From Escherichia coli (lineage in GTDB: Bacteria > Pseudomonadota > Gammaproteobacteria > Enterobacterales > Enterobacteriaceae): 64,000 nt of DNA. Location: NCBI RefSeq assembly GCF_013315695.1, contig NZ_CP054353.1; one strand, written 5' to 3'. This document shows, one piece after another, positions 2,435 to 5,998 of the stretch. The position numbers and the translations under genes were made by a program. The notes under the pieces are model-generated. The model saw only the letters and a program-made list of their open reading frames with translations. It searched no databases and was not told where the DNA came from. The number at the start of each line of letters is the position of its first letter. Position 1 is the first letter of the stretch.

Positions 2435-4221
2435 TTATGGGAAACCTGAATGAAACAGAAAAGTGGGAAGAAAATATCTATCAACTGGAGACATCAGATC
2501 CGGTTCTGGGTGGTGCAGACGGGATATCAAATCGAGCCCCCCGGCAACTGGCAAACAGGACGAAATGGCTGAAGAAAAAAACGGAGGAAGCCGCACAGTC
2601 ACTGGCTGAACACGTACGTTCCCGTAACCACCCGGACGCGACACTGACAGCTAAGGGGTTCACCCAACTGAGCAGTGCCACCAACAGCACCTCTGAAACG
2701 CTGGCCGCCACACCAAAAGCCGTCAAGGCTGCATACGACCTTGCAGCCGGCAAGGCGCCCGTCAGCCACACTCACCCGTGGAGTCAGATAACGGGAGTGC
2801 CTGCTGCCTCGCTGACGGCAAAAGGCACCGTACAATTGAGCAGTGCCATCAACAGCACGTCTGAAATACTGGCCGCCACACCGAAGGCGGTCAAGGCTGC
2901 ATACGACCTTGCAGCCGGCAAGGCGCCCGTCAGCCACACTCACCCGTGGAGTCAGATAACGGGAGTGCCTGCTGCCTCGCTGACGGCAAAAGGCACCGTA
3001 CAACTGAGCAGCGCCATCAACAGCACGTCTGAAACGCTGGCCGCCACACCGAAAGCGGTCAAGGCTGCATACGACCTGGCAGCCGGCAAGGCGCCTGCCA
3101 GCCACACTCACCCGTGGAGTCAGATAACGGGAGTGCCTGCGGCTTCACTGACGGCAAAAGGCACCGTACAACTGAGCAGCGCCACGGACAGTCAATCAGA
3201 AACTGAGGCTGCCACGCCGAAGGCGGTCAAGGCTGCATACGACCTTGCAGCCGGCAAGGCGCCCGTCAGCCACACTCACCCGTGGAGTCAGATAACGGGA
3301 GTGCCTGCTGCCTCGCTGACGGCAAAAGGCACCGTACAACTGAGCAGTGCCATCAACAGCACGTCTGAAATACTGGCCGCCACACCGAAAGCGGTCAAGG
3401 CTGCATACGATCTGGCAGCCGGCAAGGCGCCCGTCAGCCACACTCACCCGTGGAGTCAGATAACGGGAGTGCCTGCTGCCTCGCTGACGGCAAAAGGCAC
3501 CGTACAACTGAGCAGTGCCATCAACAGCACGTCTGAAATACTGGCCGCCACACCGAAAGCGGTCAAGGCTGCATACGATCTGGCAAACGGAAAACAACCG
3601 GCAGATGCCACGCTCACTGCTCTGGCAGGACTTGCCACTGCAGCAGATCGGTTGCCTTATTTTACCGGAGCAGACCGCGCAGCGCTGGCAACCCTTACAG
3701 CTATTGGTCGCGCTATTATCGCTAAGGGCAGTATAAAAGATGTCCTCAATTACCTTGGTTTGGGGGAAGGCTCTGCATTGCCTGTTGGTGTACCGGTTCC
3801 GTGGCCCACCGCCACACCGCCAGCAGGCTGGTTACAGTGCAACGGAGCTACGTTCACCAAAGAACAATATCCTGTTCTGGCCAGAGTCTACCCGACCCTC
3901 CGTCTTCCCGATTTACGCGGTGAGTTTATCCGTGGATGGGACGGTGGTCGCAAGGTTGATACCGGGCGTGCGCTACTTTCATTTCAGGAAGGGACTATCG
4001 TATCCGGTTTTGATGATAATGATACCGGAGATATCAGTTCGCTCGGCTCTACACAATACGGATTTGGTGACGCTTTAACCTCTAATCAACTGGGGGTCAT
4101 AAATGGCAAAAAGTGGATATTTGATGCATCCTCTAAAGGTGCACAAAGATATGACTGGTGGGCTTATGTATCAGCTCGCCCCCGCAATATCGCATTTAAC
4201 TATATCGTGAGGGCGGCGTGA
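2431..4221 (+). CDS. Phage tail fibre protein (P2 gpH-like) with internal tandem fibre repeats and invertible C-terminal receptor-binding domain
   Basis: 596-aa ORF; 56-aa repeats carrying the ATPKAVKAAYDLA-type phage tail fibre repeat motif; C-terminal part lies inside the invertible segment and ends ...NYIVRAA. Confidence 0.85.
   Translation: MIMGNLNETEKWEENIYQLETSDPVLGGADGISNRAPRQLANRTKWLKKKTEEAAQSLAEHVRSRNHPDATLTAKGFTQLSSATNSTSETLAATPKAVKAAYDLAAGKAPVSHTHPWSQITGVPAASLTAKGTVQLSSAINSTSEILAATPKAVKAAYDLAAGKAPVSHTHPWSQITGVPAASLTAKGTVQLSSAINSTSETLAATPKAVKAAYDLAAGKAPASHTHPWSQITGVPAASLTAKGTVQLSSATDSQSETEAATPKAVKAAYDLAAGKAPVSHTHPWSQITGVPAASLTAKGTVQLSSAINSTSEILAATPKAVKAAYDLAAGKAPVSHTHPWSQITGVPAASLTAKGTVQLSSAINSTSEILAATPKAVKAAYDLANGKQPADATLTALAGLATAADRLPYFTGADRAALATLTAIGRAIIAKGSIKDVLNYLGLGEGSALPVGVPVPWPTATPPAGWLQCNGATFTKEQYPVLARVYPTLRLPDLRGEFIRGWDGGRKVDTGRALLSFQEGTIVSGFDDNDTGDISSLGSTQYGFGDALTSNQLGVINGKKWIFDASSKGAQRYDWWAYVSARPRNIAFNYIVRAA
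2638..3590 (+). repeat. Tandem 168-bp repeat array (about 5.7 near-identical copies) inside the tail fibre gene
   Basis: Same 168-nt unit recurs at 2761/2929/3097/... (for example gtcagccacactcacccgtggagtcagataacgggagtgcctgc); encodes repeated TAKGTVQLSSAINSTSE(I/T)LAATPKAVKAAYDLAAGKAPVSHTHPWSQITGVPAASL. Confidence 0.9.
3755..3833. repeat. Left inverted repeat (79 bp) bounding the invertible tail-fibre segment; probable invertase crossover site at its outer edge
   Basis: ttggtttgggggaaggctctgcattgcctgttggtgtaccggttccgtggcccaccgccacaccgccagcaggctggtta is repeated as a perfect reverse complement at 5280-5359; outer edge contains a ccttggttt core resembling hix/gix crossover sites. Confidence 0.85.
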
Positions 4222-4227
4222 TACCGT

Positions 4228-4842
4228 TCAGCCGGCAAGCGCCAGTGGCGCTTCCGGCCAGCTGATTTCAGGTGCCTTGCTGATATCCAGTGCGTTCAGC
4301 TCGTCGATATAATCCAGCACGGCGTTCAGTTTTGCCGTTTCTTCTGGTTTCAGACTGCGACCTGCCCGCAGTTTGAGGTTGATGAGGTCGATGGACTTCA
4401 TCGCCTGATCCACCCGTTTCTGGCGTTGCAGTCTGGCAGTCTCCAGCTCTGCGGCTCTATGCCGTTCAGTATCAGTTACCCACGCTTCACCGTTCCAGGT
4501 ATCCCATGGTGTGGCAGGCTGTTTTGTGGTGGTGTCCGCCGGGTAATCACCCGGTTGGGTAATCAGAACGGGGTTACCGTTCTCCGTGCTGTATACCGTC
4601 TCGCCGCGGTGATCAGGCACATGCTCCCACCCGTTCAGCGTGGCAGTCCGGCAAACCACGTAACCCGAAATTGCCTCCGGCGGTGCATCGGCGCACGAAT
4701 GTGCCGGAGTACCCACCCCAAGGGCGAGATACTCCACAGAGGATGAGGTGTATTCCCGGGTTTCCTCGTCATAGTGATATACAGTGATATCGCCCGCTAC
4801 AGTGGCGATACCGTTTTCATCCAGAACTGCAGTGTTACTCAT
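4228..4842 (-). CDS. Tail fibre assembly chaperone (Tfa family)
   Basis: 204-aa ORF with C-terminal ...DISKAPEISWPEAP motif typical of tail fibre assembly proteins; start overlaps stop of the upstream minus-strand cassette (TAATG). Confidence 0.8.
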   Translation of the reverse strand: MSNTAVLDENGIATVAGDITVYHYDEETREYTSSSVEYLALGVGTPAHSCADAPPEAISGYVVCRTATLNGWEHVPDHRGETVYSTENGNPVLITQPGDYPADTTTKQPATPWDTWNGEAWVTDTERHRAAELETARLQRQKRVDQAMKSIDLINLKLRAGRSLKPEETAKLNAVLDYIDELNALDISKAPEISWPEAPLALAG

Positions 4843-5354
4843 TAAACTGCCCTCACAATGTAATTAAGTGCAATGCTACGGGGTCTGACAGTGATACCCT
4901 TCGCATACCCGCTTCTGATAGAGGTCAGAATAGTAGCCTGCATACCATTGTCTGACATTGCCATGACAGGATCGCTGAATGTTGTCCCGTCCGGCATTTT
5001 AAAGCTGCCCTCACGAAGGTCTGTAATGGAATCTTCATTGTTGAATCCCATGCCGACTATCCCCGAGGTTCCCGTAGTGTCCTGGTTATAATAATCCAGC
5101 ATTGCTGTTCTTAACAGCGTTGCCCCTTGTGCGGACAGCAACTTACGTCCTGTATCAACTTTGCGCCCGTCGTCCCATCCACGGATAAACTCACCGCGTA
5201 AATCGGGAAGACGGAGGGTCGGGTAGACTCTGGCCAGAACAGGATATTGTTCTTTTGTAAAGGCGCGCCCGTCGCACTTTAACCAGCCTGCTGGCGGTGT
5301 GGCGGTGGGCCACGGAACCGGTACACCAACAGGCAATGCAGAGCCTTCCCCCAA
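4842..5354 (-). CDS. Alternative tail-fibre C-terminal cassette (Sv'), currently in the inverted orientation
   Basis: 170-aa ORF whose first ~70 residues (GEGSALPVGVPVPWPTATPPAGWL...RGEFIRGWD.GRKVDTGR) match the C-terminal domain of the + strand tail fibre, then diverge; also ends ...NYIVRAV; its 5' end lies in the right inverted repeat. Confidence 0.75.
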   Translation of the reverse strand: MGEGSALPVGVPVPWPTATPPAGWLKCDGRAFTKEQYPVLARVYPTLRLPDLRGEFIRGWDDGRKVDTGRKLLSAQGATLLRTAMLDYYNQDTTGTSGIVGMGFNNEDSITDLREGSFKMPDGTTFSDPVMAMSDNGMQATILTSIRSGYAKGITVRPRSIALNYIVRAV

Positions 5355-5359
5355 ACCAA
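5280..5359. repeat. Right inverted repeat bounding the invertible tail-fibre segment
   Basis: Perfect reverse complement of 3755-3833. Confidence 0.85.
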
Positions 5360-5425
5360 CGTTTATCTCTCAAATCCTCCCCACATTATCTCAGTACTTT
5401 AACCACTCAAAAGGGAGTATTTTTA

Positions 5426-5998
5426 ATGCTGATTGGCTACATACGTGTGTCAACAAATGACCAAAACACAGATTTGCAACGCAAAGCATTAATGTGCGCA
5501 GGATGTGAACAGATTTTTGAGGACAAAATGAGCGGAACCAAGTCGGAACGTCCAGGCCTGAAACGCGCTTTAAAGTGCCTTAAAAGAGGGGATACATTGG
5601 TGGTCTGGAAGCTGGATCGGTTGGGTAGAAGAATGAAACACCTCATTGCTCTCACAGAAGAGCTACGCGCAAAAGGTGTCAATTTTCGCAGTCTGACGGA
5701 TTCAATCGATACCAGCACTCCGATGGGAAGGTTCTTTTTTCATATGATGGGTGCACTGGCAGAAATGGAGCGTGAACTGATAGTTGAGCGCACGCTGGCA
5801 GGACTGGCTGCTGCGCGAGCACAAGGGAGAGTTGGAGGACGTCGCCCGAAACTGACGAAGGAGCAGCATGAGCAGATCGCAAGATTGCTCCAGAAAGGGT
5901 ATGACAGAAAGCGGCTGGCAATTATCTATGATATTGGACTGTCAACGATCTACCGCTACCACCCTGTTGGGACTGTCATAACGCAACCTGAAATGTAA
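5426..5998 (+). CDS. pin: Serine DNA invertase (Pin/Gin/Hin/Cin family)
   Basis: 190-aa protein beginning MLIGYIRVSTNDQNTDLQ with catalytic serine context and C-terminal HTH; RBS aagggag at 5411-5417; immediately adjacent to the inverted-repeat-bounded segment. Confidence 0.9.
   Translation: MLIGYIRVSTNDQNTDLQRKALMCAGCEQIFEDKMSGTKSERPGLKRALKCLKRGDTLVVWKLDRLGRRMKHLIALTEELRAKGVNFRSLTDSIDTSTPMGRFFFHMMGALAEMERELIVERTLAGLAAARAQGRVGGRRPKLTKEQHEQIARLLQKGYDRKRLAIIYDIGLSTIYRYHPVGTVITQPEM

Follow-up and report, generated by a model that had tools for sequence, protein, structure and literature searches.

Can a tail-fibre gene that switches between two tips by DNA inversion yield a working fibre in both orientations, when only one of the tips is accompanied by a chaperone gene? 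The question is raised by a locus in a 64,000-nt stretch of Escherichia coli DNA (contig NZ_CP054353.1, assembly GCF_013315695.1; hereafter the window), the first 6.1 kb of which are the right end of a prophage. A tail-fibre gene composed of a constant part (Sc) and an expressed tip (SvA) is followed there by a tail-fibre assembly gene (tfa) and a silent tip (SvB), both on the opposite strand, with a DNA invertase gene directly outside. An initial annotation of the window had recognized the switch, and had proposed that either SvA folds without a dedicated chaperone, or one cassette has lost its tfa and the present orientation encodes a non-functional fibre.

We found that the switch is real and active in nature, and comparison with related loci indicates that its single tfa is a family design rather than the result of a local loss. 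Taken as a whole, the account that we favour, and consider quite probable, is that of a host-range switch (3743-5998) at the right end of a BcepMu-like prophage, in which the window holds the minimal form of a cassette array and SvA is a working tip.

Structure of the invertible segment

The perfect inverted repeats that the initial annotation placed around a 1.6-kb segment are indeed present, with a length of 80 nt (3755-3834 vs 5359-5280) instead of the 79 nt given. The repeat extends to 229 nt at 90% identity (3752-3980 / 5134-5362) and includes a second perfect run of 85 nt (3859-3943 / 5171-5255). It is far beyond chance, and no other inverted repeat longer than 24 nt was found in the first 9 kb. 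The pair brackets the segment within the tail-fibre gene, and the open reading frame map bears out the annotated reading of this region, in which the repeats lie inside coding sequence, the fibre gene runs through the left repeat to the SvA stop, and SvB and tfa are coupled on the opposite strand by a TAATG overlap (Table 1).

At the outer edges of the repeat arms lie two 26-bp crossover sites in inverted orientation and with identical cores. They have the same architecture as the gix site of phage Mu (TTATCCAAAACC-TC-GGTTTACAGGAA), and when the DNA is aligned to the Mu gin region, the right site coincides with gixR column for column. The left site falls in the fibre-gene codons LNYLGLGE. The core is TT in 130 of the 132 crossover sites of the family.

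The adjacent gene had been called a serine invertase, and this holds: its product matches Gin in PDB (4m6f/3uj3) with an E value of 1e-92 over residues 1-181 as well as PHROG 125 'DNA invertase', and shares 73% of its residues with Mu Gin and 83-84% with the invertases of P2-like and IncY arrays. At the nucleotide level only, the 5' part of the gene, where Din-family systems have a Fis-dependent recombinational enhancer (sis), aligns to Mu gin with long conserved blocks and a mean column identity of 81% over the alignment. The inactivating change that would have spoken against an active switch is absent, as Ser9 and the RVS and DRLGR motifs are all kept, and the protein has the wild-type Met where hyperactive Gin carries M114V. 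Judged by sequence, the invertase and its sites are thus those of a Din-family (Gin/Cin/Pin/Hin/Min) inversion system. The invertase recombines the two gix-like sites and flips the 1.6-kb segment, converting the present Sc-SvA state into an Sc-SvB state with tfa directly downstream. Computed inversion of 3755-5359 gives an in-frame Sc-SvB fusion, whose stop overlaps the start of tfa in the TAATG motif.

Both tips belong to the same structural class. Pfam identifies in the fibre six Phage_fiber_2 repeats and a Collar domain (PF07484, aa 451-498, E 1e-14); the fibre also matches PHROG tail-fibre families, and the Prokaryotic Genome Annotation Pipeline (PGAP) labels it 'phage tail protein' in a 99.9% identical copy. 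When the two tips were compared with receptor-binding families, as the initial annotation had suggested, SvA proved homologous to the tip of T4 gp37 (2xgf, E 1.6e-13), to T4 gp12 (1ocy), and to a short tail fibre (9cuy, E 3e-17), and SvB matched the same three structures. The C-terminal strand is matched in both (NIAFNYIVRAA in the window, NIAFNYIVRLA in gp37), so that the features of gp37/Stf collar-type tips, namely a Collar domain, a variable tip, and a C-terminal strand returning to the collar, are all present. The two tips differ in their relation to tfa: SvB is always the partner cassette of tfa, whereas SvA has none of its own and lies tail-to-tail with it, its stop 6 nt from the antisense tfa stop.

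Inversion between closely related genomes

The annotation had called for evidence of the alternative orientation in raw reads; we obtained it from finished assemblies instead. A synthetic inverted junction (Sc-SvB-tfa, 841 nt) was searched against 5,426 complete E. coli genomes, and several of these returned it as a single alignment of 100% identity, in agreement with the predicted fusion of the constant body to SvB with tfa downstream. The Sc-SvB-tfa junction was covered over at least 80% of its length in 284 genomes, and the Sc-SvA junction likewise in 165. In isolate AF3, the same prophage occupies the same dgcQ site with 3755-5362 of the window inverted, at 2 mismatches in 1608 nt (99.88%) and with colinear flanks. 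The same 1608-bp inversion separates two independent assemblies of E. coli 83972, here in a copy inserted in rstB, and the lineage mates Esc11 and Esc24 show an inversion difference in a three-cassette version.

These genome-to-genome differences might in principle reflect RecA-dependent homologous recombination between the 229-bp repeats, with no role for the invertase. The perfect runs of 80 and 85 bp are long enough for RecA, and genome comparisons locate the crossover only to the outermost 80 bp. However, cassette-specific differences, which begin about 80 bp from the site, always travel with their own cassette, the gix-like sites have a core that is invariant across the 132 copies apart from the two sites mentioned above, and an intact invertase is kept beside every array. 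Moreover, clonal cultures of a P2-like relative in enteropathogenic E. coli (EPEC) contain coexisting isomers (PMC4272514). We therefore regard inversion by RecA alone as very improbable and retain site-specific inversion by the invertase.

In the lineages of E. coli IPCEC31, Esc24, and Esc11 (L002, L008, and L009), the fibre gene carries a pseudogene annotation in its constant part, and the cassettes are still inverted between lineage mates; the invertase there keeps flipping the switch of an already broken fibre gene.

The single tfa gene as a family trait

The tfa product matches PHROG 105 'tail fiber assembly' (E 1e-86). Phmmer found for it no sequence match in PDB and no detectable similarity to Mu U, while its relative in Klebsiella phage KP12 matches Mu U/U' at E 1e-8 to 1e-14. 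A second tfa overlooked by the initial annotation would have undone its view that only one cassette has a chaperone gene. None was found in the 64-kb window, either by tblastn or by a phmmer comparison of all open reading frames of at least 80 aa with the window Tfa and Mu U/U', nor in the 37.5-kb prophage of the 99.9% identical copy by hidden Markov model search (E<=10). Mu and e14-like loci yield two Tfa homologues in the same phmmer test, which agrees with the stated difference from the symmetric Sv-U / U'-Sv' layout of Mu G and e14 P.

A gene hidden antisense to tfa downstream of SvA was considered and rejected: the stop-free stretch is unconserved, its 171 aa in the window standing against 65-126 aa in other Tfa types. 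A GC-rich hairpin (GCCGGCAAGCGCC AGT GGCGCTTCCGGC) lies at 4231-4258, 10 nt past the SvA stop and inside the 3' end of tfa. As a terminator after SvA it was also discarded, having no T run and a folding energy that is not significant (-30.9 kcal/mol, z -1.95).

Is this layout a peculiarity of the locus? To find out, 80 viral contigs with genes for related invertases were collected, and the positions of cassettes and Tfa homologues were determined where the upstream sequence sufficed. Two architectures emerged. Symmetric segments, those of the Mu or e14 type, are characterised by a short repeat, by one collar and one non-collar tip, and by two tfa of different types placed tail-to-tail, whereas collar-only arrays carry a single tfa. 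The latter comprise about 40 loci with 2-9 cassettes, all of them converging on one central tfa that is coupled to one cassette. Each array cassette starts with a site and about 200 nt of conserved sequence, and no plus-strand cassette lies to the right of a minus-strand one.

The closest relatives of the window locus follow the same plan. Two near-identical prophages have three cassettes and one tfa, arranged as Sc-SvD> SvA> <tfa <SvB (L003) and Sc-SvA> <tfa <SvB <SvC (L002). Three cassettes and one tfa are also found in a P2-like prophage of EPEC E2348/69 (L097), and seven collar cassettes converge on one tfa in an IncY plasmid (L095). The arrays occur on three unrelated backbones, i.e. BcepMu-like prophages (the window, L100, L101), P2-like prophages, and P1-like plasmids. 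The SvA-tfa-SvB-invertase module is carried by P1-like plasmids (L094 and H219-H222 among the loci concerned) at 97-98% nucleotide identity, and thus moves between unrelated phage backbones.

Because arrays of 2-9 collar tips all converge on one central tfa, we take the single tfa to be the design of the family and not a local loss, and the proposal of a lost tfa is not supported. Enumeration shows that a convergent array of n sites can adopt 2(n-1)! isomers, which makes four at n=3 and 240 at n=6. With two sites only, the window has one invertible segment and two isomers, while relatives with the same cassettes have 3-9 sites and near-identical prophages three. The window locus is thus the minimal, two-cassette member of a Min-like convergent array design.

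At the internal sites of larger arrays (L002, L003, and IMG/VR loci), the outer half-site consists of the last codons of the preceding cassette and its stop (...GCG GCA TAA AAACG TT GGTTT...). Units made of site, tip, stop, and half-site are therefore seamless, and deletion or insertion of whole blocks is possible; exactly one such unit separates the window from L002 and from L003.

A few loci depart from the general pattern. Phage KP12 has two cassettes and one tfa, the second cassette not being detectably collar-type. That cassette (L010 4456-5133, minus strand) has no more than a 23-nt repeat in common with the expressed end, and the 216-nt gap between it and tfa might be a remnant of a second tfa. 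One locus (L047, IMGVR_UViG_2541047915_000010) has two tfa and partial cassettes (C06> C00> <tfa C01> <C01 tfa> <C00), and looks like a duplicated or mis-assembled array. The invertase of the 83972 prophage (WP_000904922.1) is also present on the P1-like plasmid p95_MLI121 (L093), beside a symmetric two-tfa segment.

Function and folding of tips without tfa

If one tfa is the rule, are the tips that lack it functional? All 136 collar cassettes, which fall into 17 tip types, are intact. In their variable parts, the ratio of nonsynonymous to synonymous substitution rates (dN/dS) within types is 0.05-0.25, and is alike in types that never have tfa and in the tfa partner C01 (0.15). Our enumeration shows that every inversion spans the centre of the array and that the two innermost cassettes remain innermost and on opposite strands. 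A cassette that is tail-to-tail with tfa, such as SvA in the window, is therefore never co-oriented with it. Among copies in this position only, the ratio of the nonsynonymous to the synonymous proportion of differences (pN/pS) is 0.13 for C00 (pS 0.21), 0.21 for C07, and 0.09 for C09. SvA is thus probably a working tip, and a non-functional fibre in the present orientation, as raised by the initial annotation, appears unlikely for this lineage because cassettes without tfa are intact and tail-to-tail types are under purifying selection.

The most likely reading, although we hold it with a little less than even confidence, is that the class-specific Tfa is shared and serves SvA too. A single Tfa would chaperone the whole collar class, SvA and SvB alike, via the near-invariant C-terminal strand RPRNIAFNYIVRAA, which is common to all cassettes. 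The Tfa proteins beside the unrelated tips C01, C03, and C13 belong to a single subfamily, with 55-72% identity in both halves; such similarity despite unrelated partners suggests recognition of the shared collar or of the C-terminus instead of a particular tip. Tip type C08 adjoins a tfa of its own in L015, a symmetric segment, and has none in arrays (142-152 of 158 residues identical); C05 likewise adjoins a tfa in L030. The sharing of Tfa within a class also agrees with the presence of two Tfa types in symmetric segments, with their unlike tips, and of one in collar-only arrays. It has been reported that lambda Tfa can substitute for T4 gp38 (PMC9659904).

Several observations weigh against a working SvA served by a shared Tfa. 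Such sharing needs an expression of tfa that is independent of read-through from the fibre promoter: half of all isomers have tfa in the antisense orientation, among them every one that expresses SvA. No sigma-70-like promoter was found on either strand of 2300-6200 by a consensus scan, which found none for the invertase either and is therefore low-powered, and no minus-strand element is evident in the spacer between site and invertase in an alignment of 12 loci. With tfa antisense and no promoter found, expression of a shared Tfa in the SvA state is hypothetical. In addition, the copies of C02, the type to which SvA belongs, are nearly identical in the tail-to-tail position (pS 0.004), with 6 amino-acid-changing against 2 silent variable codons once four junction codons are excluded. 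Their divergence is too low for the SvA lineage of the window to be informative on selection. Outer C02 copies have a pN/pS of 0.09.

The antisense position of tfa and the lack of any excess of silent changes in the SvA copies of this lineage are what would be expected if the SvA orientation were an off or defective state, in which the fibre misfolds without a co-oriented tfa and the induced phage is non-infective. SvA would then be kept only through cassette exchange with arrays that express it together with tfa, and SvA-like cassettes do exist in outer positions where co-orientation is possible (L100, L029, L053, and L072). We consider this improbable: a switch that kills half of the progeny should be lost, whereas two-cassette elements with the layout of the window are common in E. 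coli, and KP12, with the reservation made above for its second cassette, also has two cassettes and one tfa. The absence of broken cassettes and the constraint on other types in the tail-to-tail position, measured at pS values of up to 0.21, point in the same direction. The failure to find a promoter for tfa in the present orientation can also be read in another way, namely that SvA and the other collar cassettes without tfa fold and trimerise without Tfa, and that only SvB needs it or carries it as a part of the tip. The collar-type tip of T4 gp12 offers a precedent, as it needs gp57A and is not known to need a partner of the gp38/Tfa type. Furthermore, tail-to-tail cassettes are never co-transcribed with tfa and are nonetheless intact and under purifying selection, and the arrays that harbour SvA-type cassettes have, between them, three Tfa variants. 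Against folding without Tfa stand the occurrence of C08 beside its own tfa in L015 and of C05 beside a tfa in L030, the similarity maintained within the Tfa subfamily while partner tips are unrelated, and the report that members of the gp37/Stf receptor-binding family always have tfa directly downstream of the fibre gene (PMC9659904). On balance we find folding without Tfa doubtful, although clearly less so than a defective orientation, and continue to prefer a shared Tfa.

A more general rule can tentatively be proposed, with slightly less confidence than the sharing of Tfa by SvA itself: there may be one chaperone per tip class, with Tfa occupying the only place in the array that can never be excised, reading the invariant C-terminal strand, and serving all cassettes. 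If this is true, the outer cassettes would be chaperone-free units bounded by sites, which could be lost, gained, and exchanged between BcepMu-, P2-, and P1-like phages in a manner reminiscent of integron cassettes. It would require tfa expression irrespective of orientation; otherwise, gp37-like tips would fold without Tfa, against the reported rule that tfa follows the fibre gene. For this particular genome the matter is of little consequence, as the locus is an active host-range switch of the usual kind, and the prophage that carries it disrupts dgcQ. At the level of the family, it concerns dozens of interchangeable gp37-like tips without a chaperone gene of their own that have been moved among three unrelated backbones. 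If one Tfa or none suffices, such cassettes would lend themselves to the retargeting of phages and tailocins, and the assumption that each fibre has its own adjacent Tfa would have to be qualified.

Comparison with known inversion systems

The closest parallel is the Min multiple-inversion system of plasmid p15B, reportedly described by Sandmeier, Iida, and Arber in 1990 and 1992. It has convergent cassettes with one central tfa, six sites, and 240 isomers. In p15B Min and in IncY/P1-like arrays, as in the window, a Din-family invertase acting at sites within the coding sequence joins the constant 5' part of a fibre gene to alternative 3' ends; the sequences compared are those of the IncY/P1-like proxies. 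The window shares with this type the convergent 3' cassettes that have in common a conserved 5' stretch containing the site, as on the IncY plasmid. It lacks the three or more sites with overlapping invertible segments, which its closest relatives do possess, and it resides on a transposable BcepMu-like prophage instead of a plasmid.

The resemblance to Mu G/Gin, and also to P1 C/Cin, lies in the gene order (fibre, invertible segment, invertase), in the alignment of the right site with gixR, and in the similarity of the invertase to Gin; Mu is, moreover, a transposable phage like the window prophage. In contrast, the Mu G segment has two cassettes of unrelated length, each with its own chaperone gene (S-U / U'-S'), and a repeat of 34 bp only, whereas in the window both tips are collar-type, have about 200 nt of 5' sequence in common, and converge on one tfa. 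An assembly gene for each fibre end (Sv-U / U'-Sv'), which defines Mu G, P1 C, and e14 P, is thus absent. Systems of the e14 P/Pin type also switch the C-terminus of a fibre, and their related invertases are 184-aa proteins of 85-86% identity. They differ from the window by two tail-to-tail tfa, of about 150 aa and about 200 aa, and by the pairing of a collar tip with a non-collar tip.

A three-repeat 'shufflon' has been described in a P2-like prophage of EPEC E2348/69, where four coexisting isomers were detected by polymerase chain reaction (Goldberg et al., 2014, PMC4272514); that paper does not discuss the single tfa. In the locus that we equate with it by layout only (L097), the cassettes are of the family found in the window and are arranged alike (Sc-Sv> tfa> <Sv <Sv invertase), with a single tfa; the invertase is 83% identical, and the four isomers fit n=3. 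This locus differs from the window in having three cassettes and a P2-like backbone.

T4 gp37-gp38 and lambda Stf-Tfa share with the window locus the collar tip with its C-terminal strand, and a Tfa of the tail-fibre assembly family. The reported rule that in this family the chaperone gene lies directly downstream is followed by SvB, through the TAATG coupling, but not by SvA. Finally, R64-type shufflons (Rci) also permute several C-terminal cassettes of one constant gene by inversion. Rci is a tyrosine recombinase, its sfx sites are asymmetric, and the protein that is varied is a pilus adhesin, not a phage fibre. In its enzyme, sites, and logic, the window locus belongs to the Din inversion systems, as an ordinary, minimal two-cassette member of a family with a single tfa.

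Prophage context

The transposable nature of the prophage is supported by several lines of evidence. Near-identical copies stop at the same base, position 6076 of the window, and are inserted in or beside different genes: in different genomes, the right end abuts dgcQ, rstB, or srlE, and adjoins clbH or aroA. In the window, host dgcQ restarts at 6077 with a duplicated ACTGG(T). The 99.9% identical copy in isolate AF10 measures 37.5 kb, encodes a DDE transposase and homologues of Gam, Mor, and gp16, and likewise splits dgcQ with duplication of ACTGG(T); the target duplication is present at both junctions in L096. Phage PhiKM, a relative, is classified as Bcepmuvirus. With a DDE transposase, many insertion sites, and a short target duplication, the window prophage is a transposable, BcepMu-like element.

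Table 1. Features of the prophage right end and of the tail-fibre switch (positions in the window)
Feature	Position	Strand	Description
Baseplate genes V, W, J, I of the prophage right end	1-2434		
Tail-fibre gene, constant part Sc and tip SvA	2437-4221	+	594 aa from ATG; open reading frame opens at TTG 2431
Tandem shaft repeats in constant part	2642-3613	+	168 nt (56 aa), about six units; direct-repeat families D1-D5 spaced 168 nt, coinciding with the Phage_fiber_2 matches
Left crossover site	3743-3768	+	TCCTCAATTACC-TT-GGTTTGGGGGAA; 12-2-12 layout, core TT 3755-3756
Tip cassette SvA (cluster C02)	3757-4221	+	Conserved collar-encoding 5' part to about 3980, variable tip 3981-4221
tfa, tail-fibre assembly	4228-4842	-	204 aa; TAATG coupling to SvB, sharing base 4842; antisense to the fibre gene in the present orientation
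Silent tip cassette SvB (cluster C03)	4842-5357	-	Open reading frame 4842-5354, 170 aa; collar-type
Right crossover site	5346-5371	-	GAGAGATAAACG-TT-GGTTTGGGGGAA; core 5358-5359
Din-family serine DNA invertase	5426-5998	+	190 aa; directly outside the segment
Right end of the transposable prophage	5999-6076	+	Terminal sequence ...GCGCGGCGCATCA; copies at five chromosomal sites have their sequence in common as far as 6076, then diverge

The insertion splits dgcQ (yedQ), a diguanylate cyclase gene regulating cellulose synthesis, of which only the 3' part lies in the window (6077-7026). The length of the fibre shaft differs widely, from fibres of about 305-319 aa (KP12, PhiKM, and L100) to 594-611 aa in the group of the window, which suggests that the number of shaft repeats varies among relatives. 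The baseplate J gene is intact in the window (760-1863), whereas its AF10 counterpart (L001 1331-2433) is annotated as frameshifted despite the overall identity of 99.9%.

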